A stretch of 20,942 bases of DNA from Phycisphaeraceae bacterium (lineage in GTDB: Bacteria; Planctomycetota; Phycisphaerae; Phycisphaerales; Zrk34), in contig JBBDRF010000006.1 in the NCBI GenBank assembly GCA_040905565.1, positions 39,058 to 59,999 on the forward strand, in the 5' to 3' direction. Under the pieces are notes generated by a model that saw only the letters and a list, made by a program, of their open reading frames with translations, did no database searches and had not been told where the DNA came from. Below, piece by piece: positions 8,748 to 20,942 of this stretch. A program made the position numbers and the translations under genes. Every line of letters starts with the position of its first letter. Position 1 is the first letter of the stretch.

Positions 8748-8891
8748 ACGAGCCGCGACCGTAAGGGAGCGGACCGGCGTTCGACCTCGCGCGGCCGATC
8801 CGTCACGCGGCGCCGTTCCCGAACCGCGCTCCCATGCGAAGCCGTTCCCCGTTTCCGGACGCACAACCGCTCCCTTACGGTCGCGGCTCGT
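8748..8891. repeat. REP/REPIN-like doublet: perfect 25-bp inverted repeats around a 94-bp spacer
   Basis: ACGAGCCGCGACCGTAAGGGAGCGG (8748-8772) and its exact reverse complement (8867-8891), between the convergent rph and dctM genes. Confidence 0.85.
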
Positions 8892-8899
8892 ATCCAACA

Positions 8900-10228
8900 T
8901 TACGGCTCGTTGTGGACACCACGATCTATTTCAAAGAAACTGCTTAGCCACTCGGGGACCTCGCCCAGGCCCAGGGCGATCTGCGGGAAGATCATCACCA
9001 GCAGTGCCGACACGAGCAGAATCGCGATGAACGGCGGCGTGCCTCGGATGACCTCCAGGTACGGCCGGCGGAAGATGGCGATGGCGGTGAAGATGTCGCA
9101 GCCGAACGGCGGGGTGGCTGAGCCGATCGCCACCTGCATCGTCACGATCACGCCGACGAGGATGGGGTCGATGCCCGCAGCGGCGGCGATGGGCGCGAAG
9201 ATCGGCGTCAAGATCAGAATCACCACGATCGGGTCCACGAACATGCACCCGATGAAGTAGGCCACCGCGATCGTCAGCAGAATGGTCCAGTAGCCCGAGG
9301 TTTCGTCGAGGCTGATCAGGAAGCCCGGCAGCTCCGCGAAGGAGATGACCCACGAGAACGCCGCCCCCGCGCCGACAAGCACGAACACGACGGCAGTGAT
9401 GAGCCCGCTGTTGAGGGCGATGCTGCGAAGGTCGTGCATCTTCAGTTCACGGAAGACGACGGTCTCGAGCAGCACGGCATAGCCGACCGAGATCGCTGCT
9501 GCTTCGGTGGGGCTGAAGAAGCCGCCGTAGATCCCGCCGATGATGATGATCGGGAAACCCAGGGGCCAGAGGGCGCGCTTGAGCGCGACGTTGCGTTCGT
9601 CGGTTGTCGCCTTCTGCAGCCTTGGGATGTTCAGGCGGATCGAGGCGATGTAGCAGTAGATGCAGAAGAACAGCAGGATCATCAGGCCCGGGCCGATGCC
9701 GGCGATGAACAGGTCGCCGATGGAGACCTGCGCGACGACGCCGTAGACGATCATGCCGATGCTTGGGGGGATCAGCAGGGCAATATCGCTGGCGTTGATG
9801 ATGAGTGCGGACGTGAACGAATCGGAGTAGCCGGCTTTGAGCAGCCTTGGGCGAAGGGGCCCGCCCACGGCGACGACGGTGGCCTGCGTGGAGCCGGAGA
9901 TGGCGCCGAAGACGGTGCAACTGATGGCGCTGGTGATCGGCAGGCCGCCTCGTAGATGGCCGACGCAGCTCATGACCGCGTCGAGCAGGCGGTTCGCAGC
10001 CTGGCCGCGGGTCATGACATCCGCTGCAAGGATGAACATCGGCACAGCGACGAGGGAGCCGGGCGTGATGCCGCCGATCCACTGTTGAATCATGATGCGC
10101 GGATCGACATCGGGGAAGAAGGCGATCATCACCACCAGGGCCGACATCAGCAGCGGGACCTTCATGGGAAAGCCCAGCAGCAGCAGCACCAGCATGATCG
10201 CCACAATGACGAGCGTGATTTCCAGCAT
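8900..10228 (-). CDS. dctM: TRAP transporter large permease (DctM; TeaC-like)
   Basis: Highly hydrophobic; AVPMFILA, GHLRGGL, FGAISGS, LLIPPSI, FSPTEAA, TPPFG. Confidence 0.93.
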   Translation of the reverse strand: MLEITLVIVAIMLVLLLLGFPMKVPLLMSALVVMIAFFPDVDPRIMIQQWIGGITPGSLVAVPMFILAADVMTRGQAANRLLDAVMSCVGHLRGGLPITSAISCTVFGAISGSTQATVVAVGGPLRPRLLKAGYSDSFTSALIINASDIALLIPPSIGMIVYGVVAQVSIGDLFIAGIGPGLMILLFFCIYCYIASIRLNIPRLQKATTDERNVALKRALWPLGFPIIIIGGIYGGFFSPTEAAAISVGYAVLLETVVFRELKMHDLRSIALNSGLITAVVFVLVGAGAAFSWVISFAELPGFLISLDETSGYWTILLTIAVAYFIGCMFVDPIVVILILTPIFAPIAAAAGIDPILVGVIVTMQVAIGSATPPFGCDIFTAIAIFRRPYLEVIRGTPPFIAILLVSALLVMIFPQIALGLGEVPEWLSSFFEIDRGVHNEP

Positions 10229-10821
10229 CAGATGTGCCCCTGCCCTTTGGGTTCACCCGACTCGGCGGCCGCGGCCTCGTCGGGCTCGGCTGCGGTGGTC
10301 TCGGGCTCGGCATACGCGTCGCTGTGGCCGTAGCTCATGTAAACTATGTCTCCCCGCTCACGCAGGTTCCGCACCACCGTCAACGCGTATTGAATTCCCG
10401 CCAGCACCAGGCCCAGCGGGGCCGAGAGATACACAATGTAAAGCGGCACCCGAAGCGTCGGCGAAACCGAATCCAGCTCACGCACCACCGAGATGTACCC
10501 CACCGACCAGTACGCCAGGTAGAACATCAACAGCGACGTCACCGCTGCGATCACGATCATCAGCGCCCGCCTCGGCTTCACCGGGAGCATGTCGTAAAAC
10601 GCCGTCATGCGGATGTGCCGGCCTTCGCTCGCGGCGTAACTGAGGCCGACGAAGCAGACGATGATGATGAGGAAGCCGGTCAATTCCTCAGCGAAGGCGA
10701 GCGAGTAGTTAAACGTGACGCGGGCGATCACGTTCAAAATGGTCAGCACAGCCATGGCGATCATCGCCCAGGCGAGCAGCCATTCCTCGATCTTGTGGAT
10801 CACTTTGAACAACTGCGACAT
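10228..10821 (-). CDS. dctQ: TRAP transporter small permease (DctQ; TeaB-like)
   Basis: Four TM segments, NVIAR...AEEL, GRHIRM. Stop overlaps the dctM start. Start placed at ATG 10821 (MSQLFK). Confidence 0.88.
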   Translation of the reverse strand: MSQLFKVIHKIEEWLLAWAMIAMAVLTILNVIARVTFNYSLAFAEELTGFLIIIVCFVGLSYAASEGRHIRMTAFYDMLPVKPRRALMIVIAAVTSLLMFYLAYWSVGYISVVRELDSVSPTLRVPLYIVYLSAPLGLVLAGIQYALTVVRNLRERGDIVYMSYGHSDAYAEPETTAAEPDEAAAAESGEPKGQGHI

Positions 10822-10966
10822 GGTGACGCTGCCTGTTAGGAACGAAGATGCAAAGGCCGCTGCGTACCCCACCGATGATAAGGCGAGCCAACCGAGCGTC
10901 AAGGAAAGCGCTGCGGGCCACGATTGCACTCTCGACGCCGTCGGCGTCATGCGCTAAGGTAGAGGC

Positions 10967-12049
10967 ATGATCTTTGCGAAAGCTGAATATCTCCGCCGCG
11001 TCGCCACGCTCGCCTTCGCCATGCTGTTCACCGCGTTCCTCAGCGGATGCGGGGAGGAGACCAGCGAAGAAGTCGAAGCGGCTTTGGCCGAGGATGTTGA
11101 AGTCTGGCGCTTCGCCATTGAGGAAACGGCCGGCGGCGTTCAGCACGCCTATGCCGAGCGATTCAAGGAACTCATCGAAGAGCGTACCGACGGCGACGTA
11201 CGGGTCACCATCTACACCTACGGTACGCTCGGCACCAGCGACCACGTCACCGAACTGCTCCGCATGGGTTCGGTGCATTTCGCGATGGCTTCGCCGGGGC
11301 ATATCGGGACGGTCATTCCCGAGGTTCAGGCTCTGCTGCTGCACTTCGTGTTCTCCGACGATCCGCTCGTGAACAAGCGGGCCCTGCAGGAAGCGGGCGA
11401 ACTGCGGAATACGCTGAACGAGCTTTATGACGCCAAGGGCTTTCAGCTGCTTTCGATCTATCAGGAAGGCTGGATGGCGTGGACGGCGGACCGTGAGATC
11501 CGCACGCCCGACGATTTTCAGGGCCTCCGCATCCGCGTCATGACCACGCCCACCCTCCTCGCCGCTTACCAGGCCTACGGTGCGGCCCCCACCCCGATGG
11601 CCTACGGCGAAGTGTACAGCGGCCTGCAACTCGGGCAGATCGACGCACAGGTGAACCCTCTCTTCGCCATCCGCGACATGAGCTTTTATGAGGTGAACGA
11701 CTACCTGATCATGGGCCGTCATGCTCCGTTCATCACCACCGCCATGACGAATCGCGATTTCATGGAAGGCCTCTCCGCAGATCGCCGAGAACTCGTCACG
11801 CAGACCGTCGACGAACTGCACGATTACATTTTCGACATGCAGCAGCAGTTCAATCAGGAAGCGTTGGAAGACATCCGCGAGAACCGCCCGGAACTGAACA
11901 TCGTGGCCTCGCTGACCGATGAGGAACGCCAGGCTTTCCGCGAGGCCAGCCTCGGCGTCCGGCAGTGGTACATCGACACAGTCGGCCCCACCGGCGAGCA
12001 GGTGCTCAACCAACTCCTCGCCGCCGTCGAAGCCGCCGAGCAGGAATAA
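10967..12049 (+). CDS. dctP: TRAP solute-binding lipoprotein (DctP; resembles TeaA/UehA ectoine binders)
   Basis: Lipobox LSG-C, WRFAIEE...VQ, IRTPDDFQGLRIRVM, PMAYGEVYSGLQLGQIDAQVNP, FYEV. GAGG RBS. Confidence 0.9.
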   Translation: MIFAKAEYLRRVATLAFAMLFTAFLSGCGEETSEEVEAALAEDVEVWRFAIEETAGGVQHAYAERFKELIEERTDGDVRVTIYTYGTLGTSDHVTELLRMGSVHFAMASPGHIGTVIPEVQALLLHFVFSDDPLVNKRALQEAGELRNTLNELYDAKGFQLLSIYQEGWMAWTADREIRTPDDFQGLRIRVMTTPTLLAAYQAYGAAPTPMAYGEVYSGLQLGQIDAQVNPLFAIRDMSFYEVNDYLIMGRHAPFITTAMTNRDFMEGLSADRRELVTQTVDELHDYIFDMQQQFNQEALEDIRENRPELNIVASLTDEERQAFREASLGVRQWYIDTVGPTGEQVLNQLLAAVEAAEQE

Positions 12050-12167
12050 CCCCCCCACTTCCCGTCCCCGCATCAACCGCGCAAGAGCCGGGCTGTCCGC
12101 ATCCCGCCCCGCCCCGCCCCCCGCCGGCCCAGCTCTCTTGCTCGCCGTATTCCCAATCGTTCCCACC

Positions 12168-12195
12168 TTGACCCGCCCCGAGACCTTGCTAAAGT
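12168..12195 (+). promoter_or_regulatory. Sigma70-type promoter of tRNA-Asn
   Basis: TTGACC-16 nt-TAAAGT with an extended -10 TG, 30 nt before the tRNA. Confidence 0.6.
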
Positions 12196-12225
12196 ATGGC
12201 TCAGCCCGGATAGGGCGACAACTGA

Positions 12226-12298
12226 TCCCCGATAGCTCAATTGGTAGAGCGGACGGCTGTTAACCGTCAGGTTGGTGGTTCGAGTCCACCTCGGGGAG
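12226..12298 (+). tRNA. tRNA-Asn(GUU); anchor of the downstream island
   Basis: Acceptor TCCCCGA/TCGGGGA, anticodon arm GACGG-CT-GTT-AA-CCGTC, T-arm GGTGG-TTCGAGT-CCACC. CCA not encoded. Confidence 0.97.
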
Positions 12299-12538
12299 TT
12301 CAAGGCCGGTATCAACCCCGATACCGGCCTTATTTATGCGCCCGGCAGGCCGTGAAGCAGCCGCCACACAACCCGCTGTCGCAAAGCGATATACGCGATG
12401 CGGGCCACTCCCCGACCCAACCCGCCGTCTCCGTCCGTTAACCACCAAACGCGGGGTCGGGGCGATTTGCGACCAAAATCTCAGACTCTCTCGCCCGAGA
12501 GCGCCGACGGGTTAACAACGTTGATTGGAATGGGGTGG
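12296..12538 (+). repeat. Island leader, copy 1
   Basis: 12296-12521 aligns ungapped to 18631-18856 (offset 6335). The 12429-12538 part recurs at 18954-19063 (offset 6525). Confidence 0.92.
12302..12337 (+). terminator. Hairpin/terminator after tRNA-Asn
   Basis: AAGGCCGGTATC-AACCCC-GATACCGGCCTT, a perfect 12-bp stem followed by ATTTAT. A second copy at 18637-18672 has one mismatch. Confidence 0.65.
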
Positions 12539-12570
12539 GGGTGCGGTGCAGCGTCCACGGAAGCGAGCAA

Positions 12571-13146
12571 TCAGAGATGGGAATAGCTCGCGTACGCCGT
12601 ACAGCGGGCCAACGCCTGCCAAAAGTTCAGCTCTTGCTGCGGAACTTCAAAACGTACCACTGGCGTATTCTCATCGCCTTTGCGCGCCCAATACTCCAAG
12701 CCTGAAAAGTCGGGGAGGTATCGCCAGTTTCCATGCGCCACGGCATTCCTCAAGGCGCGAACTGGATTGTCGGTGAGAAATCTGCAGCACCTTTTGGCCG
12801 TCGAACCACCTGGCAGTTCCTTTTTCAACACTTTGAAGCACGGTTCGCCGAGGTAAACGAAGCAGATGTACAGTTGATAGACCACTTGCGCACGGGCTAC
12901 TGCTGGATGCCGATCGGGCGTGTCATGAACCAAATCCATGAACCCTTGAAATGCTCGCAATTCTTCGACGCGGTTGGCGAGCGGTATGGGCGAAGCTGCC
13001 GTGACGCGCGCTTTAGCATCCTTTGGCAGGGCGGCTACCTGAGCAGCTATCGTTGTCGCGAGCTGATTACTGTCAAGAGCGGGTAGCTTCAGATCATCTC
13101 GCAAACGCGGCGACCATATCTGCATTTGCTCGTCAAGGCGCATCAT
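12571..13146 (-). CDS. Hypothetical protein with HEPN-like RxxxxH motif
   Basis: 191 aa from ATG 13146 (GGAG RBS); contains LRNAVAHGN. Confidence 0.65.
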   Translation of the reverse strand: MMRLDEQMQIWSPRLRDDLKLPALDSNQLATTIAAQVAALPKDAKARVTAASPIPLANRVEELRAFQGFMDLVHDTPDRHPAVARAQVVYQLYICFVYLGEPCFKVLKKELPGGSTAKRCCRFLTDNPVRALRNAVAHGNWRYLPDFSGLEYWARKGDENTPVVRFEVPQQELNFWQALARCTAYASYSHL

Positions 13147-13312
13147 CTTACAGCTCCCCTGATCGGTCTTACTGTAAAAGGTATCGAGGGCGTGATTCCC
13201 GAGCAAACCGTCGCACTCCGGCTGCCTGGACCAGTCCTTCACCAGCGGCAGCGCCGACCGAAGCATCATCCCTGACCGTGCGTCATCGCACACGCTCGAT
13301 AGAATGGCTCAC

Positions 13313-13852
13313 ATGACCCCGGCTGAAGCCCACCCATCACCCCGCGCGATCATCATCGCCGGGCCCAACGGCGCAGGCAAGACGACGTTCGCACGCGAGT
13401 TCCTGCCCGCCGAGGGTGAGTGCCCCACCTTCATCAACGCCGACCTGATCGCGGCGGGGCTCTCACCGTTTCAGCCAGAGACGATGGCGATCGAAGCATC
13501 GCGACTCATGCTCGCCCACGTTCGCCAGAGTGTGGAGCGGCGAGAGGACTTCGCCATTGAAACGACGCTCGCCGGTCGGGCCTACGTACGGATGATTCGC
13601 GACTGGCAAGCTGTGGGTTACCGGGTCCGAATGCTGTTCCTGCAACTGCCGTCGCCCGACATGGCGGTTGCTCGCGTGCGCGGTCGCGTGGCGCAAGGTG
13701 GTCACAATCTCCCCGAAGCCGATATTCGCCGCCGTTTCGACCGCGGGTTGAGGAACTTTGACGACATTTATCGACCACTCGTCGATGCGTGGTCGGTCTA
13801 CGACGCCAGTCACTGGCCGCCCGTGTTTCTTGATGAAGGGGTGAACGAATGA
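13313..13852 (+). CDS. Zeta-toxin-like / predicted ABC-type P-loop ATPase (COG4185-like)
   Basis: IIIAGPNGAGKTTF, FINAD.IA.GLSPF, FAIETTLAG, RV..RV.QGGH.lP...IRRRF. Start is ATG 13313 or 13304. Confidence 0.88.
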   Translation: MTPAEAHPSPRAIIIAGPNGAGKTTFAREFLPAEGECPTFINADLIAAGLSPFQPETMAIEASRLMLAHVRQSVERREDFAIETTLAGRAYVRMIRDWQAVGYRVRMLFLQLPSPDMAVARVRGRVAQGGHNLPEADIRRRFDRGLRNFDDIYRPLVDAWSVYDASHWPPVFLDEGVNE

Positions 13853-14817
13853 TTCAACAGGACGATCGCTATCGTGACCTAGAAGGCAGCCGCGCCGCGA
13901 TGATCCGTGCCGCGCGACGGGCGGCCGAGGTGGCCCGGCAGCACCAGCAGCCCCTCATCCTCTGGCGCGATGGCCGCATCGTCGAGGTGATGCCCGACGA
14001 CCTGCCGCCACTGCCGGAGCAAGCGCCGCGGAAAACTGAAGCAGATATCGATCCGCAGGCCGACCGTCAATCAGCATGTGACCGGGCACAAGAACTCGCC
14101 TGGGATGCGATGGAGGCCAGCGACGAGGAGCAAATGGCCCGGCTGTGCCGACAGGCGTTGGCGATTTACCCCAACTGTGTTGATGCGCTCAGTATGCTCG
14201 CGGAGGTCGAATGCGAGCGGGTCAGGGACTACGTGGCCGCGATGCGACGAGCGGTTGAGGCCGGGCGACGCGACCTTGGGCCGGAGGTGTTCGAGCAGGA
14301 GAAGGGCCACTTCTGGCTGGCTATCGAAACCCGTCCCTTCATGCGTGCCATGGCGGGGCTGGCCGACGCGCTGTTGCAGTGGGGACAACCCGAGCATGTG
14401 GACGAAGCAATCGCGATCTACGAGGAGATGCTTGAGCTCAACCCCAACGACAACCAGGGCATCCGTTACCTGCTGCCAGGCTGCTACCTTCAGCGTAAGA
14501 GATATCGCGAGGCGGCAATTCTGTTAGATGAGCATGGTGATGAAGGGATGGCGGCCCTGGCGTGGGCGCGTGTTCTGCTGGCGTATGCCGTTGGGAACGA
14601 GGACGAGGCGAGCGACCTGCTCAAGGAAGCACGGGAGCAGAACCCATACGTCGAACTGTATCTGACTGGCCGTAAGCGTCGCCCACGAACGCGGACGGAC
14701 TACTACTCGCCCGGGGACGACACGGAAGCCCTCGTTTGCGCGGATGCGCTTTGGGAGGCGTGGAAGAAGCATCCGAAGGCAAAGCGTTGGCTGAAGGAGC
14801 AATGCGAGGCGCAATGA
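13849..14817 (+). CDS. Fusion of a ~60-aa ATPase-partner domain to a TPR/ST7-like domain
   Basis: N-terminal AMIRAARRAAE...PLILWRDGRIVEV; C-terminal AQELAWDA, CVDA, ETRPFMRA, MLELNPNDNQGIRY, EQNPYV. ATGA overlaps with both neighbours. Confidence 0.75.
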   Translation: MIQQDDRYRDLEGSRAAMIRAARRAAEVARQHQQPLILWRDGRIVEVMPDDLPPLPEQAPRKTEADIDPQADRQSACDRAQELAWDAMEASDEEQMARLCRQALAIYPNCVDALSMLAEVECERVRDYVAAMRRAVEAGRRDLGPEVFEQEKGHFWLAIETRPFMRAMAGLADALLQWGQPEHVDEAIAIYEEMLELNPNDNQGIRYLLPGCYLQRKRYREAAILLDEHGDEGMAALAWARVLLAYAVGNEDEASDLLKEAREQNPYVELYLTGRKRRPRTRTDYYSPGDDTEALVCADALWEAWKKHPKAKRWLKEQCEAQ

Positions 14818-16133
14818 ATGCCTTGCTCCGTCAGATGGCAGCCCCTCACCAGCCCATCCGCTACGCGATCTACACCCGCCAGTCGGTCGAGCAGTTGGCG
14901 GACTTCTCATCGTGCGAGGCCCAGTTCCACACCTGTCGTGACTTCGCCGAGGCGTCGGGCGAGCGGGGCCTGGTCTGGTGCGGCCAGCGATTCGACGACG
15001 AGGGCGAGTCCGGTGCGACGCTTGATCGGCCCGCCATGCGGAAGCTGCGGAAGGTCGTCGACCTCGGCGGCATCGACCGCATCTACGCCGTCGCCCTCGA
15101 CCGCGTCACGCGCAGCATGCGCGATGCGACCCTGCTGATGGATGACTTTGAGAAAGCCGGCGTGGAGGTGCGATTTGTTCACCAGCCTGAGTTGACTTTC
15201 GGCGCGCAAGGCCGCTTACTTAGACACGTTATGGCAGCCTTTGCGGAGTTCGAACGCGACATGATCACTGCACGCCTCGCCGAGTCACGCACGTACCTCA
15301 AGAAGCACGGCCGACGCCTTGCCGGCAAAGTCCCCTACGGCTACGACGCCCATCCGCACACCCGGCAGCTCGTGCCCAACGCGGAGGAAGCCCCGCGCGT
15401 CGTCGCCATTTTTGAGCGGGCGGCGAAGGGTGAACGGCCGAAGCAGATCGCTGACGCCATCGATGCACTCAACTGGCCGACGAAGATCTACCACGCCAAA
15501 CGTTCCGGCAGGACCACCGGCGGCGGCAAATGGACCGCCCGACAAGTCACTGACACGCTGCGCAACCCGGTCTACATCGGCCGCTTCGCCGAGGGTGCCG
15601 ATACACGCGACGGCTGCCATGAAGCGATTGTCGATCGGGCGACGTTCGACGCCGTGCAGAAACAACTCGACTCCCGCCGCACGACCGAGCGCCAAAAGCG
15701 CACGCGCCACGACCACCTGCCGTTCCGCCAGAAGATCGTCTGCCCCCGCTGCGGTCGCTTATTGGCGACGCACCAGACCACGCGGAGGGTTTCCAGCGAC
15801 ACGACCATCGTGGACTACTTCTACCAATGCCGATCCACCGCCGGCGGCCGCTCACCCTGTCCGGGCGTTCGGCTACACGCGTGGAAGTTCGAACAGCTCG
15901 TCCTCGGCCTCTTCGACGACGCCGCCACCTGGCGCACGCTCTTCGGCCAGGACGCATCCGACTTGCTGATCCACCAGGTCATGCAAACCTGGCGTGAGCT
16001 GCTCCCGCTCTGGAAACGCGACTGGCTTCGCGAAGCCATCCAGCGCATCGAGATCATGGAAACCGGTGAGACGGAAGCCGACATCTCCATCACCTTCACC
16101 GCCGACGCCGCCAAGCCGTTCCTGGCCCTTTGA
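14814..16133 (+). CDS. Large serine recombinase (intact, 439 aa)
   Basis: Catalytic YTRQS, DEGESGATLDRP, LDRVTRS, FAEFER; recombinase domain PYGY, LRNPVYIG, HEAIVD..TF..VQ; zinc ribbon CPRCG...YQC...C. Start at ATG 14814 overlaps the upstream stop. Confidence 0.95.
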   Translation: MNALLRQMAAPHQPIRYAIYTRQSVEQLADFSSCEAQFHTCRDFAEASGERGLVWCGQRFDDEGESGATLDRPAMRKLRKVVDLGGIDRIYAVALDRVTRSMRDATLLMDDFEKAGVEVRFVHQPELTFGAQGRLLRHVMAAFAEFERDMITARLAESRTYLKKHGRRLAGKVPYGYDAHPHTRQLVPNAEEAPRVVAIFERAAKGERPKQIADAIDALNWPTKIYHAKRSGRTTGGGKWTARQVTDTLRNPVYIGRFAEGADTRDGCHEAIVDRATFDAVQKQLDSRRTTERQKRTRHDHLPFRQKIVCPRCGRLLATHQTTRRVSSDTTIVDYFYQCRSTAGGRSPCPGVRLHAWKFEQLVLGLFDDAATWRTLFGQDASDLLIHQVMQTWRELLPLWKRDWLREAIQRIEIMETGETEADISITFTADAAKPFLAL

Positions 16134-16175
16134 AAGCGACCTACGACGTCGTCTGTTAAGCAGTCGGTCGCAGTC
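16132..16175. other. Putative att site T1 (quasi-palindrome centred on CT 16153-16154)
   Basis: GAAAGCGACCTACGACGTCGT-CT-GTTAAGCAGTCGGTCGCAGTC with symmetric GCGACC/GGTCGC arms. Homology with the second unit stops exactly at 16175. Confidence 0.65.
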
Positions 16176-16229
16176 TCGGGATAGACTGTATCGGGTGTAC
16201 CAGCAAAGCGACAGGAGGTCGAAGCAGAT

Positions 16230-16778
16230 ATGGTGAGATACAAGGTGCTGATCGGTCGCATGCTGGTCGTGCTCGCCGGGGCCCTCTGGCTCGGTGGGCT
16301 GACGTTCTACGCCTCGGTGGTGATCCCGACGGCCCACGGCGTGCTGGGCAGCCACACCACGGTGGGCTTCATCACCCGGCAGGCGACCGGGTGGATCAAC
16401 ATTCTGGCGGTGGTCGCGCTGGTCGTGTTCTTGGGGAACCTTGTCGCCACGCGGGCCGCTCATGGACCCCGGCTGCGCCTGGCGCTGGGCGGCGCGTGGG
16501 CCGCGATGGCGGCCGTGCAGGTGGGCCTGTTCGCCCTCCACCCGCGGCTCGACCGGCTGCTTGATCCCGAGGCGATGGAGATCCTCGCTTCGGAGCGGTT
16601 CTACGCCCTGCACCAGGTCTACCTGATTGGCACCAGCGCGCAGTTGCTGGCAGGGCTGGTCTTTCTCGCATGCGTGCTGACCGTGTGGGGTCGTCAGGAC
16701 ATGCTCAAGATTAAGCGCGCCAGCTCTCGCCTTTCCTCTGCAAGCCAGCCACGTGAGGTCGCTGGCCATGTTGCTTGA
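16230..16778 (+). CDS. Four-TM membrane protein (DUF4149-like)
   Basis: AGGAGG RBS; LWLGGLTFY..VV.P, HPRLD, FY.LH..YL; four hydrophobic segments. Confidence 0.72.
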   Translation: MVRYKVLIGRMLVVLAGALWLGGLTFYASVVIPTAHGVLGSHTTVGFITRQATGWINILAVVALVVFLGNLVATRAAHGPRLRLALGGAWAAMAAVQVGLFALHPRLDRLLDPEAMEILASERFYALHQVYLIGTSAQLLAGLVFLACVLTVWGRQDMLKIKRASSRLSSASQPREVAGHVA

Positions 16779-17049
16779 AGGACGAGCTGATCCATACTAC
16801 CGGTCGCCGCCAACACATGATTTTGTTGCAAGCAACGCGCGGCAGGTTACCGCTTACAGCGGGGGATAGATGGTGCCCTCCTCGCAATTCCCGATGGAGC
16901 GCCCGACTTGCCACGCCATGTCCCTCCCCCGCTCATCGTCGAGCGTCGGCGGGAGATCATCGACCTGCTCGCCCGCCACCTCACGCGGATGCTTGGTGGC
17001 GTCGCGATCGCTCCATGCGTCGTCCAGATCTACCCAGTAAAATGAGGTC

Positions 17050-17261
17050 ATGGTTGAGCAGGACGATCGCTACCGCGACCGCGAAGGCAGCCGCGCTGCG
17101 ATGATCCGTGCCGCGCGGCGTGCGGCCGAGGTGGCCCGCAACATGGACAGCCGCTGGTCTTCTGGCGTGATGGCCGCATCGTCGAGGTGATGCCCGACGA
17201 TCTGCCGCCTCTGCCGGAGAAAGCTCCACGCCATGAAGGACCCTCGCGCGAAGATACTTGA
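17050..17261 (+). pseudogene. Stand-alone copy of the ATPase-partner gene, frameshifted
   Basis: DNA homology to 13849-14033 with a 1-nt deletion after 17138 (GCCCG-CAA vs GCCCGGCAG). The restored frame ends at TGA 17259-17261. Confidence 0.8.
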
Positions 17262-18572
17262 GCGACTGGTCGAAGGCCCACCCAAGCCGAAGCCCATCCG
17301 CTACGCGATCTATACCCGCCAGTCCGTCGAGAAGCTGGTGGACTTCTCGTCGTGCGAGGCTCAGTTCCACACCTGTCGCGACTTTGCCGAGGCGACCGGT
17401 GAGCGCAGCTTGGTCTGGTGCGGACAGCGGTTTGATGACGAAGGCGAGTCCGGCGCGACGCTCGATCGGCCCGCGATGCAGAAGCTGCGGAAGGTTGTTG
17501 ATCTCGGCGGCATCGACCGCGTTTATGCCGTCGCGATCGACCGCGTGACCCGCAGCATGCGCGATGCGACCCTCTGATGGATGAGTTCGAAAAAGCCGGC
17601 GTGGCGGTGAGATTTGTTCACCAGCCTGAGTTGACGTTCGGAGCGCAAGGCCGCTTACTTAGACACGTTATGGCAGCCTTTGCGGTGTTCGAACGCGACA
17701 TGATCACTGCACGCCTCGCCGAGTCACGGACGTACCTCAAGAAGCACGGCCGACGCCTCGCCGGCAAAGTCCCCTACGGCTACGAAGCCGACCCGCACAC
17801 CCGGCAGCTTGTGCCCAACGCGGAGGAAGCCGCACGCGTCGTCTCCATTTTCGACCGGGCAGCGAAGGGGGAACGGCCCAAGCAGATCGCCGACGCCATC
17901 AATGAACTCAATTGGCCGACGAAGATCTACCACGCCAAACGCTCCGGCAAGACCACCGGCGGCGGCAAGTGGACTGCTAGGCAGATCACCGACACGCTGC
18001 GCAACCCGGTCTACAGCGGCCGATTCGCCGAGGGTGCCGATACACGCGACGGCTGCCATGAAGCGATTGTCGATCGGGCGACGTTCGACGCCGTGCAGCA
18101 ACAGCTCGACTCCCGCCGCACGACGAAGCCGCAGAAGCGCACGCGCCACGACCACCTGCCGTTCCGCCAGAAGATCGTCTGCCCTCGCTGCGGCCGCTTT
18201 CTGACAACGCACCAGACCACGCGGAGGATTTCCAGCGAAACGACCATCGTGGATTACTTCTACCAATGCGGCTCCACAGCCGGCGGCCGGCCACCCTGCC
18301 CGGGCGTTCGGCTGCACGCGTGGAGGTTGGAACAGGCTGTCCTCGGCTTCTTCGACGACGCCGCCACCTGGCGCACGCTCTTTGGCCAGGACGCATCCGA
18401 GTTGCTGATCCACCAGGTCATGCAAACCTGGCGCGAACTGCTCCCGCTCTGGAAACGCGACTGGCTTCGCGAAGCCATCCAGCGCATCGAGATCACGGAA
18501 ACCGGTGAGGCCGAAGCCGACATCTCCATCACCTTCACCCCCGACGCCGCCAAGCCGTTCCTAGGCCTTTGA
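17233..18572 (+). pseudogene. Large serine recombinase copy 2, split by a 1-nt deletion
   Basis: 17291-18614 is homologous to 14851-16175 (roughly 90% by eye). CCCT-CTGATG vs CCCTGCTGATG at 17573/4 gives 114-aa and 331-aa ORFs. AEFER is changed to AVFER. Confidence 0.88.
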
Positions 18573-18626
18573 AAGCGATTTACGACGTCGCCTGTTAAGC
18601 AGCCGGTCGCAGTCCTGTAAGGGTGA
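18571..18626. other. Putative att site T2 with a tRNA-Asn-like 3' fragment
   Basis: Homologue of T1, centred on CT 18592-18593. Right half CTGTTAA-GCAGC-CGGTC-GCAG-TCCTGT resembles a tRNA 3' half missing its T-loop. Confidence 0.6.
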
Positions 18627-18630
18627 TTTA

Positions 18631-18856
18631 GAGTTCAAGGCCGGTATCAACCCCGATACGGGCCTTATTTATGCGCCCGGCAGGCCGTGAAGCAGCCGCC
18701 ACACAACCCGCTGTCGCAAAAGGATATGCGCGATGCGGGCCACCCCCCTGCCCAACCCGCTTTCTCCGCCTGTTAAACGCCAAAAACGCGGTCAGGGCGA
18801 TTTTCCGCCAAATTCTCTGACTCTCGCTACCGACCCTCGCGACGGGTTAACAACGT
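18631..18856 (+). repeat. Island leader, copy 2
   Basis: Ungapped direct repeat of 12296-12521; the first ~90 nt are nearly identical. Confidence 0.92.
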
Positions 18857-18953
18857 CGTCTCAAGCGGGGGCGCTTCAGCAGCTCGCGAGTATCGAACAG
18901 TTTAACAGGTAGCGGCGACCGTGTCACGAGCGCGATCATCATCGCCGCCGCCC

Positions 18954-19063
18954 TCTCCGCCGTTAATTGCGAATGCGCCCGGGGGGCGTGGTCTCCGCCA
19001 GACTCTCAGACTCTCGCCGCCGAGACCCGCCGCGCGTTAACCACGTTGTTTGGAATGGGGTGG
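18954..19063 (+). repeat. Partial leader, copy 3 (GTTAA module)
   Basis: GTTAA (18962), CTCAGACTCTC (19005) and GTTAAC.ACGTTG.TTGGAATGGGGTGG (19036-19063), with the same spacing as copy 1. Confidence 0.8.
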
Positions 19064-19108
19064 CAGGACAAGGCATCGAGGCCGCTGTCCTTTTTGCTAC
19101 GTGTCGCC

Positions 19109-19786
19109 TTATTCACGTCGCTCCTCGCGAACCGGCTTGATTTCGACGGGCACGTCGTCGGAGTTGCATTCAAGCCATTCGACGTCGAACCTTCCGCGAT
19201 AGCCGAAGAGCGGCCCCCACGTGTTATTGGTGACACGCACCTCGATTCCGAACTGCTCCCGGTCGTCATCGTACCATTCGCACACTTCCGCATAGCCCGA
19301 AGCGATCATGGGGAAGCGGAAGCCGATCATACCTTCGTAGAAACGCTGCTCGCCCGAGCGAATGCACAGGCTGCCACCTTCGCCGACGGTTGGATGAATA
19401 TCGACTGCGAGATGTTGATGCGAACCGAGATAGTCGACGATGCACTGACGCTGTTCGCTATAGACCATGGTCGCGTCGAACCGCCGTGGTGTGGAAGTTT
19501 CAAATTGGCGGACCCAGGTGACCGTCTCGCGGCCAAACGAATCTACATACGCATAGTTGTGGATGGCAAACGCGATGTTCTGCCCGCGCTCTGGAAACAT
19601 GATGCGTCGCCAGGTACCGATATAGAGAAAGGGGAGTGTGTAAAATCGGCCCCGCCAGATGTCTTCCATGACGCCCCGCCCGATTGAGGCCACGCCATCA
19701 GTGCTACTGAAGCCGAACCGCTGTTGGATCTTAGGGTGTAGCCGCTGGAAGTCTTCGCCGAGCGCCCGCTGATAGATTGAAATCAT
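19109..19786 (-). CDS. DUF4166 domain protein (YndH-like)
   Basis: SIYQRALG.DF.RLHP.IQ.RF, FPERG.NI.F.I.N, R.F....RRFDATM, DYLG, GPLFGYRG.F. AAGGAG RBS; ATGA overlap with the upstream gene. Confidence 0.85.
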   Translation of the reverse strand: MISIYQRALGEDFQRLHPKIQQRFGFSSTDGVASIGRGVMEDIWRGRFYTLPFLYIGTWRRIMFPERGQNIAFAIHNYAYVDSFGRETVTWVRQFETSTPRRFDATMVYSEQRQCIVDYLGSHQHLAVDIHPTVGEGGSLCIRSGEQRFYEGMIGFRFPMIASGYAEVCEWYDDDREQFGIEVRVTNNTWGPLFGYRGRFDVEWLECNSDDVPVEIKPVREERRE

Positions 19787-20700
19787 ATCGGCTCCTTAGG
19801 TTTGCGGCGCAGGCAGCGCCGAGCCGAAGGTAGGTCGCGGCAGCAAACCCAGCCAAGCGTTGCCAGACTGATCATGCCCACGCTGAGCGTCAGAGGGTTG
19901 AATGGGGCGACGTAGATGCTCGGCATCGTCATCAGCGCCCCGAGGCCCAAGGCGAGAAGCAGGACGATGGTCACTATGTAGAGAGATCGCCAGCGCCAGA
20001 GCGCGATCAGCAGCACGGCGAACGCGACCTCGCCGAGGCCGAACGCGAGGAGCATCGCTTCTTCGCGGCCATCGAAAAGGCCCGAGGTGCGAAGCATCGC
20101 CAATTCATCTTCGTGCTGAAGCACTAGCTTGGGGACAATTCCCTGGTAAAGGAAGATCAGGGCCAGCGTCACTCGGCAGATCGCATGGCCGAGGCTCCGA
20201 AGGGCGGACAGTCCGGGATCGACGCCGCGTTCGAGCCAAAGGCGAAGTCGGTCAAAGCTCCACGCTGTCGCCCAGCCGATCAGGGGGCGGAAGAGGAATC
20301 GGTCGACGAGCGCGCCAACAGCACCATAGCGAGGCTTGTAGTCATATAGAGTTAGAAAGCAAATGCCGCCGCGAGTCTCGATGTATTTCCAGTACCCCGA
20401 GCCTTCCTCAATCAGCGACTTTGGGTCGTTCGAGGCGAAACGCAGTGCCGAAGAACTTTGGCCGTCGGCGTCATGTATCCCCACGCTTTCGCCCGTGCCT
20501 TCTACCCGAATGCCGAGGCCGATGCGGGTCTGATAGCTGAATCGCTGAGGCTCATCGTCAGTCGGCCTCGGGAGGTAATGGATTTTCGTGAAACGCAGGT
20601 CCCAACGCTCATGAAGGTGCGGATCTCGCGTGTGACGCCAGAGTGCGTCGAAAGGCGCGCCGATTCGGATCTCAACATAGATGGGTTTGGCAGTCCTCAA
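19783..20700 (-). CDS. SRPBCC-like + DoxX-like membrane protein (YndG-like)
   Basis: KPIYVEI.I, HERWDLRF, GSGYWKY, FLT.YDY, WATAWSFDRLRLWLE, YQGIVPKL, PFNPLTL. Start placed at TTG 20700 (GGAG RBS); GTG 20787 is also possible. Confidence 0.8.
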   Translation of the reverse strand: MRTAKPIYVEIRIGAPFDALWRHTRDPHLHERWDLRFTKIHYLPRPTDDEPQRFSYQTRIGLGIRVEGTGESVGIHDADGQSSSALRFASNDPKSLIEEGSGYWKYIETRGGICFLTLYDYKPRYGAVGALVDRFLFRPLIGWATAWSFDRLRLWLERGVDPGLSALRSLGHAICRVTLALIFLYQGIVPKLVLQHEDELAMLRTSGLFDGREEAMLLAFGLGEVAFAVLLIALWRWRSLYIVTIVLLLALGLGALMTMPSIYVAPFNPLTLSVGMISLATLGWVCCRDLPSARRCLRRKPKEPI

Positions 20701-20862
20701 CGCGGCTCCACCACTTGCTTCGGCAAATCGCGTCACGATTGTCGGCACGATCCTATCCAGCGCTTGCACGTGTATTTCGAATGTCACAATTTGCTTACGC
20801 CGCCGCTGTTGATCGAGTCAAGATAAACGTACGGGTCCCGAGGAAGTGCAACAACATCTGCC

Positions 20863-20899
20863 ATGACGGACCCTCGCGCGAAGATTTTGAGCGACTGGT
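20863..20899 (+). other. 5' end of a third recombinase copy, truncated by the sequence end
   Basis: ATGACGGACCCTCGCGCGAAGATTTTGAGCGACTGGT matches the copy 2 start ATGAAGGACCCTCGCGCGAAGATACTTGAGCGACTGGT, one base shorter. Confidence 0.75.

Positions 20900-20942
<43 letters not shown>

Follow-up and report, generated by a model that had tools for sequence, protein, structure and literature searches.

A likely decaying tandem stack of small serine-recombinase elements at the only tRNA-Asn gene of a Phycisphaeraceae assembly

How does a bacterial chromosome come to carry a row of related large serine recombinase (LSR) genes on one strand behind a single tRNA gene, with different genes in front of each of them? 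The question is raised by a stretch of 20,942 nucleotides (nt) from a Phycisphaeraceae bacterium (GenBank assembly GCA_040905565.1, here G000; C6:39058-59999), which runs to the end of contig C6 and is referred to below as the window. The assembly is of metagenome type, with 92 contigs, 5.7% contamination, and 47 tRNAs. We conclude that the window likely holds a decaying tandem stack of small integrative elements, probably inserted one after another by their LSRs at the 3' end of the sole tRNA-Asn gene. A preliminary description made from the letters alone had read the locus as small LSR elements stacked at tRNA-Asn; this interpretation is supported by our analysis, and the observation behind it is partly confirmed.

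The tRNA-Asn(GTT) gene is intact (ARAGORN; Rfam tRNA, 70.4 bits) and is the only one among the 47 tRNAs of the assembly. A conserved noncoding block of about 245 nt, the leader, begins at the base directly after it, which matches the arrangement of islands at tRNA genes. From there the window is built of units with one layout, namely a leader, cargo genes, in places a module of zeta-like, N-terminal-domain, and TPR genes, an LSR gene, and a 61-nt pseudo-tRNA arm (Table 1). The units measure 3.9 kilobases (kb), 2.45 kb, and at least 2.3 kb and differ in their Pfam cargo, in line with the 2.4- to 3.9-kb units with different cargo that had been described. The claim that no phage, conjugation, or replication genes are recognizable also holds, as Pfam found no phage, conjugation, transfer, or replication (primase, helicase, polymerase) families among the unit proteins. 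No tyrosine recombinase appeared among the Pfam results for the window. The G+C content is unremarkable, at 0.59 to 0.65 in the units versus 0.60 to 0.67 in the flanks.

Three LSR genes on the same strand had been reported; the repeats are real, but one gene is intact, one is frameshifted, and one is a 40-nt stub. The intact gene, LSR1, lies in an open reading frame (ORF) at 14736..16133 and probably starts at ATG 14802 to encode 443 amino acids (aa). Its Resolvase (1.2e-26), Recombinase (7.2e-14), and Zn_ribbon_recom (1e-6) domains score above the Pfam cut-offs, the catalytic domain of TP901-1 matches at 2.2e-22, and the catalytic residues R26, S28, D100, R101, and R104 as well as four Cys residues (C314, C317, C343, and C353) are invariant in 15 family sequences. 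An AlphaFold2 (AF2) model (pLDDT, 81) contains all LSR domains, and Foldseek matched it to the integrases of Bxb1 (1.7e-17) and SPbeta (8.2e-17); among integrases of solved structure, those of SPbeta, Bxb1, TP901-1, and A118 come closest. In the model, four short helices at residues 360 to 412 (about 53 residues) lie between the ribbon and the final beta hairpin, the position expected for the coiled coil. The long two-helix coiled-coil motif of A118 and phiC31 appears to be longer than this insert. Judged by sequence and model, the LSR1 product is a bona fide large serine recombinase with predicted recombination activity.

The second gene, LSR2, is 91% identical to LSR1 over 1326 nt and is split into ORFs 17233..17577 and 17577..18572 by a 1-nt deletion outside any homopolymer. 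The deletion is also found in an exact contig from X1, the run that probably represents the source sample, and the extra base is present in relatives from runs X2 and X3; LSR2 is therefore a real pseudogene. In X2 and X3, the latter from a different study, only relatives at 90 to 99% identity occur and not the locus itself. The match to a third LSR in the window is limited to 40 nt (20860-20899), followed by about 44 G to the contig end. Such poly-G or poly-C ends arise as an artefact of sequencing and interrupt the assembly, in this case within the third LSR gene; long poly-G (or poly-C) runs likewise stand at the ends of contigs C27 and C88 and at the start of C79. With only one intact recombinase in the window, the locus is a decaying stack rather than three working elements.

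Matching sequences bound the units. The 42 nt that follow the stop codons of LSR1 and LSR2 are common to both (16134-16175 and 18573-18614). In its complete form, the 61-nt arm starts with CTGTTAAG, matching the tRNA anticodon-loop motif CTGTTAAC, and ends in ...AGGGTGATTTAGAG versus ...GGGGAG in the tRNA, and its length from the anticodon-loop motif to the end equals that of the real tRNA. The arm is a diverged mimic of the 3' half of tRNA-Asn and not an exact repeat. After LSR1 it ends at 16175, without its last 19 nt and without a leader, and the cargo of unit 2 starts at once; an X1 contig (16027-17198) crosses this junction with no mismatch. The idea that two complete LSR genes end in the same site thus stands for the 42 common nt but not for LSR2, which is frameshifted, or for the shortened site of LSR1. 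The recurrence of the leader is borne out, with 12296-12521 matching 18631-18856 at 86 to 87%. Junctions of four types occur, tRNA/leader, arm/leader (18573-18680), and, on the contig C61 described next, arm/hairpin and arm/degenerate leader; their right sides start alike, with TTCAAGGCC and a hairpin.

The stack probably continues on C61. An LSR gene is cut off at about codon 13 by the end of contig C6, and the reverse strand of C61 opens, beside a G/C run, at about codon 21 of such a gene; these abutting gene ends and the equal depth of the two contigs suggest that they adjoin. On C61, this third LSR (LSR3) comprises residues ~18 to 78 with stop codons, including TAA for the Tyr codon of the AIYTRQS motif, then about 1.7 kb of unrelated DNA with a 537-aa ORF that has no Pfam family, and finally residues 367 to 443 and the stop. 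It is followed by an arm and by 40 nt that repeat the leader hairpin, then by a PhoD-like gene of 848 aa, the last codons of another LSR, an arm, and a degenerate leader, beyond which lie ordinary genes (DsrE-like, PAS histidine kinase). One X1 contig of 12,068 nt at depth 16 spans both C61 junctions and the PhoD-like gene with no mismatch. If the join holds, there are four units with decay rising with distance from the tRNA, the LSR genes being in turn intact, frameshifted, broken by stops and replacement, and reduced to a tail.

Many relatives of the LSR show the same placement. The family search returned 67 loci in GTDB species representatives, and the 45 with at least 40% identity were scanned for tRNAs; close homologues (49 to 72%) were found in 4 genomes among 61 relatives. 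The proposed check of homologues came out in favor of the first description: a tRNA-Asn gene lies upstream on the same strand, at 335-4226 nt, in 18 of the 45 scanned loci (homologues of 40 to 73%) and in 16 of the 27 loci with at least 5 kb of upstream DNA. One locus, L041, has its LSR inverted relative to tRNA-Asn, and most of the remaining unlinked loci are short contigs. The linked homologues come from Phycisphaerae, Desulfobacterota, Acidobacteriota, and Verrucomicrobiota. The same arm stands 3' of the LSR stop in 8 other loci (L028, L034, L036, L037, L043, L057, L042, and L049), and in the Desulfobacterota-labelled records among these an encoded CCA closes both the tRNA and the arm. The arm of L036 matches the tRNA anticodon arm exactly over 17 nt, and in L028, L030, and L033 the LSR reading frame continues into the arm.

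Whole units with both ends visible measure 2.4 to 5.6 kb across the family. Their cargo differs by locus and consists mostly of genes of toxin-antitoxin or restriction type, HEPN genes, and kinase genes. For example, L029 has a zeta-like gene with DUF6933/DUF6398; L031 has GIY-YIG, a spore-photoproduct-lyase-like radical SAM enzyme, and an Eco57I-type methylase; and other loci have MazE (L032), GNAT (L036), MNT with HepT (L042), HEPN with TPR (L043), or HEPN (L049). In X3 relatives, the leader end either abuts the cargo of unit 2 (joint 12539 -> 16182) or is followed by 1261 nt of other DNA and then by the region before LSR2 (12539 -> 16969), which fits a variable cargo slot. The proposal of variable cargo between leader and recombinase needs one correction. 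Homologues of the zeta-like gene (44 to 76%) stand beside related LSRs in L028, L029, L030, and L063, together with the N-terminal domain in each case, and a TPR/ST7-like protein directly precedes the LSR in L047, L027, L043, L093, and L089 (38 to 70% identity), other phyla included. Because the zeta-like/N-terminal-domain pair and the TPR gene accompany the LSR in other genomes, they are not free cargo.

Stacks are also found elsewhere. At least five other loci (L028, L044, L048, L055, and L091) have two LSR genes or remnants in a row, and L044, L048, and L055 have two LSR matches each behind tRNA-Asn. In L028, an IS110 transposase gene and a degenerate tRNA-like stretch are followed by a leader, a zeta-like gene, the N-terminal domain with DUF6933/6398, an LSR (70%), and an arm, and after this first arm come a second leader, unknown genes, what remains of an N-terminal domain, and another LSR, which belongs to a different clade. 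In L091, a complete genome, the order is tRNA-Asn, AAA_21 and DUF4276, an N-terminal remnant of the LSR family, HTH and HipA, and DUF2924 with an LSR. At 7270-7340 of L028, beside the IS110 transposase gene, a 63-nt stretch from GGCTGTTAA to GGGAGC stands at the expected place of tRNA-Asn; it is not called by ARAGORN and may be a disrupted tRNA-Asn.

A link to tRNA-Asn is also seen for this second, more distant LSR clade (about 30% identity, frames of 520 to 700 aa, in many cases preceded by a DUF2924 gene). Of 31 genomes with an LSR match, 15 have one that shares contig and strand with the best tRNA-Asn match and lies 1 to 16 kb downstream of it, ARAGORN having been applied to some of these tRNA matches. 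The clade occurs in this position in G005, G015, G021, G023, G026, G031, G035, G039, G040, G041, G043, G058, and G060 and at L017, L091, and L055. In G040, the one genome inspected by eye, no pseudo-tRNA arm follows the stop of the second-clade LSR, and the element seems to extend downstream.

When related elements are compared, the crossover falls at most a few nt from the point where the tRNA ends, an exchange that would leave the tRNA whole. Between L036 and L037, the arm and leader are common, and the tRNA body and the sequence after ...GATTTAGAG differ; the tRNA end and the arm end have GAGCCAGATTA in common in L043 and GAGATACG in L032. Across the family, the arm and leader travel with the LSR, and the tRNA body and the post-arm sequence are host specific. 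A crossover in the anticodon loop (CTGTTAA in the tRNA and arm) was considered and rejected; the DNA to the right of the loop motif at the far junction is element DNA, since it is conserved with the LSR across hosts and phyla and does not form a working T-arm. A recombination site at the leader/cargo boundary was likewise rejected, as the starts of the cargo have no half-site in common.

A plausible route to such a stack begins with a circular element whose attachment site (attP) would consist of the pseudo-tRNA arm and the start of the leader. The LSR would recombine attP with a chromosomal site (attB) centered on the tRNA 3' terminus, and the tRNA would be kept whole. The right-hand side of the element would copy the native tRNA trailer, both starting with TTCAAGGCC and the hairpin. 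Because the right side resembles the trailer, the occupied site would still be attB-like, and we propose that a new element therefore lands between the tRNA and the resident. The youngest unit would lie nearest the tRNA, and older units would decay by frameshift, stop codons, replacement, and deletion. Inner arm/leader junctions (such as 18573-18700) would be attP-like, and if an LSR paired one of them with the tRNA junction, the forward reaction could excise the proximal unit or units. Decayed units with their arms retained could travel with a working neighbor, as proposed for cis-mobilizable elements (CIMEs) and for integrase-less ssrA islands. Units could also be lost by RecA-type homologous recombination between leader copies, and a joint in X1 (12530-19057) has that form.

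Several observations weigh against serial insertion of this kind. No recombination, circle junction, or empty site in a near-identical strain was observed, and canonical LSRs are not known to recombine with attL. The site behind LSR1 is unclean, with a cut arm and a wholly missing leader, and the 91% identity of LSR1 and LSR2 with the duplicated N-terminal domain segment fits a local duplication equally well. In L091, the family remnant lies nearer the tRNA than the intact LSR of the other clade, which counters the rule that the nearest unit is the youngest. No contig among the X1 matches listed bridges C6 and C61, the last 158 nt of C61 have no X1 cover, and within the window the intervals 12297-12356, 15233-16027, and 17672-18691 are not bridged among these matches. 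X1 further contains a joint from 12530 to 19057 at depth 14.5 that leads from leader-1-like sequence straight onto the DUF4166 cassette, and 19227-20082 is present in X1 only as a variant with 23 differences at depth 21. Finally, the full leader follows tRNA-Asn in two genomes, G004 and G044, where the nearest 12 kb contain no LSR and the genes that come next are ordinary.

Since the leader is present in these LSR-less genomes, it is not in itself proof of an element. It follows tRNA-Asn at a contig end in G001, a plain terminator follows tRNA-Asn in G011, and part of the leader is repeated after the element in L042, L037, L032, and L036. We infer that the native tRNA-Asn trailer of the lineage may be the collapsed remnant of old insertions, of which present elements would carry a copy on their tRNA-side end.

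A bolder form of serial insertion would have accretion renew itself across phyla. The occupied site would serve as attB and the inner junctions as attP, insertion, stacking, and excision would be one reaction without a directionality factor, and in genomes without an LSR the leader would be what is left of a stack that had shrunk to its two ends. We regard this as unlikely; if it were true, tRNA-Asn would be a natural, near-universal landing pad, and the recombinases of about 440 aa would be portable tools that need no engineered site.

Local duplication is the next explanation to weigh. A single integration could have been followed by duplication and by homologous recombination between leaders or LSR genes, with cargo exchanged with other elements. 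The 91% identity of LSR1 and LSR2 over 1326 nt, with the domain segment duplicated alongside, is of this kind, as are leaders that are 86% identical, the unclean junction between LSR1 and unit 2, and the sharp cargo boundaries between conserved flanks at the X3 joints; the X1 joint lies inside the repeated leader motif, as homologous recombination would give. However, an arm copy of its own closes each unit, the units carry unrelated sets of cargo, the fourth unit retains only an LSR tail and an arm, and the 9% divergence of the LSR genes is large for a recent event within one genome. The stacks of L028, L055, and L091 mix LSR clades, which is impossible by duplication. We consider this account quite unlikely.

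The order of the units rests on a short-read assembly, and a chimera could arise if coexisting strains, each with one element at tRNA-Asn, had been joined through shared repeats. The metagenome-type assembly with its contamination, the contig break at a poly-G run in the third LSR, and the X1 data point in this direction; the 12530/19057 joint and the variant of 19227-20082, which is 97% identical, indicate a second haplotype in X1. The flank depth of 15.5 speaks against this haplotype being simply the same chromosome without units 1 and 2. X1 pieces matching exactly cover 11500-12297, 12356-13450, 13425-13998, 13971-15233, 16027-17198, 17171-17672, and 18691-19256, at a depth of 15 to 19 on the C6 flank and units 1 and 2. 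Depth is 15 to 16 in the flank, in units 1 and 2, and in the C61 part alike, whereas a shared flank should be deeper if strains were summed, and exact contigs span the junction between LSR1 and unit 2, the boundary between leader 2 and DUF4166 (18691-19256), and both C61 junctions. The copies differ by 9 to 14%, enough for assemblers to separate them, and pseudogenes and remnants are expected of an old stack. An assembly chimera is in our judgment very unlikely.

An integron-like platform, with LSR1 capturing recombinase-less cassettes at the leader end and the other LSR copies incidental, is highly improbable: the leader end is the same within 4 nt in leader 1, G004, G044, L028, and four X3 joints, but the first cargo bases are unlike among units 1, 2, and 3 and the two L028 units and offer no second half-site, every unit has or had its own LSR, and the conserved arms are at the tRNA end rather than the leader end.

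Islands at tRNA genes are textbook tyrosine-integrase biology. Classic stacks of LSR elements are the composite islands of the staphylococcal cassette chromosome (SCC/SCCmec), a subject of two reports (PMC13739063; 10.1101/336396). In these islands, large serine recombinases have moved cargo into the 3' end of one essential gene. Like the tRNA-Asn units, they form tandem composites, with recombinase-less pseudo-SCC units among them, and lack conjugation genes. Unlike the tRNA-Asn units, SCC targets a protein gene, rlmH, uses a CcrA/CcrB pair or CcrC alone, extends over tens of kb, and occurs in a different host phylum. The closest match among RNA genes is found in the ssrA islands of Dehalococcoides, which carry the CcrB-like LSR DsiB and lie in tandem at the 3' end of a single-copy RNA gene (McMurdie et al. 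2011, PMC3146451). They are likewise bounded by gene-end copies at an essential, tRNA-like RNA gene, include units without an integration module that are read as cis-mobilizable, and have no transfer or replication genes, being interpreted as integrative mobilizable elements. Their target is tmRNA (mid T-loop, 20-bp direct repeat), whereas the target here would be the tRNA-Asn 3' terminus, and they carry a six-gene integration module with a second, small serine recombinase and an integrase beside attL, on the reverse strand and overlapping attL. In contrast, the tRNA-Asn units measure 2.4 to 6 kb; they start with 245 nt that repeat the region downstream of the tRNA, and their single LSR is the last gene, with the 61-nt pseudo-tRNA half behind it. 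Paired serine recombinases in an operon (CcrA and CcrB or DsiA and DsiB) are not found in the units, where each LSR is single and its neighbors are the zeta-like kinase and the TPR protein. If C6 and C61 adjoin, the units follow the pattern of both systems, with a tandem array at a single-copy gene and some members without a working recombinase. These two systems, and not integrons, are the nearest known ones.

For the decay of the units, the accretion of integrative elements with CIMEs reported for ICESt1 and ICESt3 of Streptococcus thermophilus offers a parallel. There, a working element is said to insert beside a decayed one that keeps its att sites, with joint movement possible, which fits the decayed units here. 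Those systems differ in their tyrosine integrases, conjugative elements, and protein-gene target. The likeness to integron cassettes that had been drawn, with each unit bringing its own recombinase, is right in that last respect but otherwise loose. Integrons, too, line up small units of varying gene content at a single fixed place in the chromosome, but the window has no IntI, attI, attC, or single platform promoter; its repeats are the pseudo-tRNA arm and the leader, and tandem serine-recombinase islands at ssrA have already been described (PMC3146451). Tycheposons of Prochlorococcus are cargo elements at tRNA genes with tandem junctions and heterogeneous subpopulations, of which 910 of 937 use tyrosine recombinases and a minority an LSR; many carry replication genes (primase, helicase), and tRNA-Asn has 0 occurrences in the main text of the report (10.1101/2020.12.28.424599). 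The units share with them a tRNA target and an integrase but no replication module. In the literature searched, we found no description of a tRNA-Asn-directed LSR family or of such islets in Planctomycetota, although databases of att sites (TIGER/Islander, PMC12884075) may contain members.

The family is of interest in several respects. A compact serine integrase of about 440 aa likely fills the role of tyrosine integrases at one tRNA across at least four phyla. The units are very small for natural integrative elements (2.4 to 6 kb), and a putative attP (the 61-nt arm and leader start) and attB (the tRNA-Asn 3' end) can be written down. They offer an instance in which to ask how serine integrases, normally unable to reuse an occupied site, build stacks, and integrases with a target already present in nearly all bacteria might be drawn from them.

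Table 1. Features of the tRNA-Asn locus, with positions counted from the first letter of the window
Feature	Position	Strand	Evidence
tRNA-Asn(GTT), putative left (chromosomal) attachment-site arm	12226..12298	+	ARAGORN, Rfam
Leader 1, ending sharply at cargo start	12299..12538	+	Repeat D3, inverted repeat I2, alignments
HEPN-like ORF, unit 1 cargo; true start probably residue 50	12571..13293	-	ORF, Rx4H motif
Zeta_toxin/AAA_33-like P-loop kinase, unit 1	13304..13852	+	Pfam Zeta_toxin 1.7e-10, AAA_33 1.1e-9
N-terminal domain of ~65 aa (partner of the zeta-like gene) fused to TPR/ST7-like domain	13849..14817	+	Pfam TPR_19 1.9e-10
LSR1, only intact large serine recombinase gene in the window	14802..16133	+	Pfam, AF2, Foldseek
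Pseudo-tRNA arm of unit 1, truncated	16134..16175	+	Junction alignment
Membrane protein of 182 aa, unit 2 cargo	16230..16778	+	ORF
Frameshifted remnant of the N-terminal-domain gene, without TPR part	17050..17232	+	Repeats D5, D6 (spacings 3200, 3201)
LSR2, pseudogene through 1-nt deletion at 17574	17233..18572	+	ORFs, split Pfam hits, alignment
Complete pseudo-tRNA-Asn 3' half (element-side arm)	18573..18633	+	CTGTTAAG ... AGGGTGATTTAGAG
Leader 2, start of unit 3	18634..18873	+	86-87% to leader 1
Extra copy of distal part of leader, directly before unit 3 cargo	18998..19063	+	Repeat D4, 80%, 66 nt
DUF4166 protein, unit 3 cargo	19109..19786	-	Pfam 3.5e-62
Protein of 334 aa with C-terminal DoxX_3, unit 3 cargo	19783..20787	-	Pfam 1.4e-18
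Third LSR, first ~13 codons	20863..20899	+	92.7% to LSR2 start
Poly-G run, artefact	20900..20942	.	Contig end

The cargo first described stands, with a Zeta_toxin/AAA_33 protein, a TPR protein, a membrane protein, DUF4166, and DoxX_3; for the HEPN-motif gene, the evidence is an Rx4H motif and a lead. The HEPN-like ORF has no Pfam or PADLOC family, and its look-alikes in the Atlas, clusters of HEPN pEK499_p136 at 0.94 to 0.95, are a lead only. Of the 7 cargo proteins submitted to PADLOC, the zeta-like protein alone gave matches, which were weak and of P-loop type. The TPR gene overlaps the zeta-like gene, and since it is coupled to a HEPN gene in L043, its product may be a partner of toxin-antitoxin type rather than a directionality factor. 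About 180 nt from its start (from 13849) are duplicated before LSR2, where the translation has a frameshift and a stop. The membrane protein of unit 2 has no Pfam family above the cut-off. To the left of the tRNA lie TRAP-transporter genes (DctP, at 10967-12049, and DctM, by Pfam).

Leader 1 contains a hairpin (12302-12331) and conserved blocks. Within it, positions 12433-12476 form a degenerate version of the arm, after which come another hairpin and a GGGTTAACAACG motif; these last three features are also in the leader of the LSR-less G044. Homology of the leader to G004 and G044 stops at 12521-12538, and X3 joints lie at 12535 and 12539. RNAalifold found compensatory changes in the first hairpin only; pairing of the two GTTAAC motifs is uninformative because they are invariant. 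On the minus strand, the second hairpin is terminator-like and lies behind the minus-strand cargo gene. The leader was also considered as a known RNA and rejected, since Rfam returned nothing but the tRNA at E<=1. The degenerate internal arm copy with hairpin and GGGTTAACAACG occurs at 12433-12520, at 18768-18855, and at 283-368 of L126, and TGTTAACC is found in the tRNA anticodon arm, in the post-LSR arm, and twice in the leader, once inverted. Copies (80 to 85%) of block 16943-17043 and of the leader-distal motif occur at C5:190394-190494 and 193964-194015 (L094), near the end of C5 and far from tRNA-Asn.

Two further loci hold minor observations. Inside the replacement in LSR3, positions 12412-12590 of L001 (C61) have an X1 depth of 85 versus about 15 around them and encode a leucine-zipper-like peptide, EAQRLKELEQENGRLK, of a kind that we take to be typical of OrfA of the IS3 family; this stretch is probably a remnant of an insertion sequence (IS). 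In L025 (G002:C31), at 8835-14356, a type II Cas9 (10211-13402) and Cas1 adjoin a truncated, inverted LSR of the family 8 kb from tRNA-Asn, with an IS transposase and a PEP-CTERM-like protein of 1731 aa in between.

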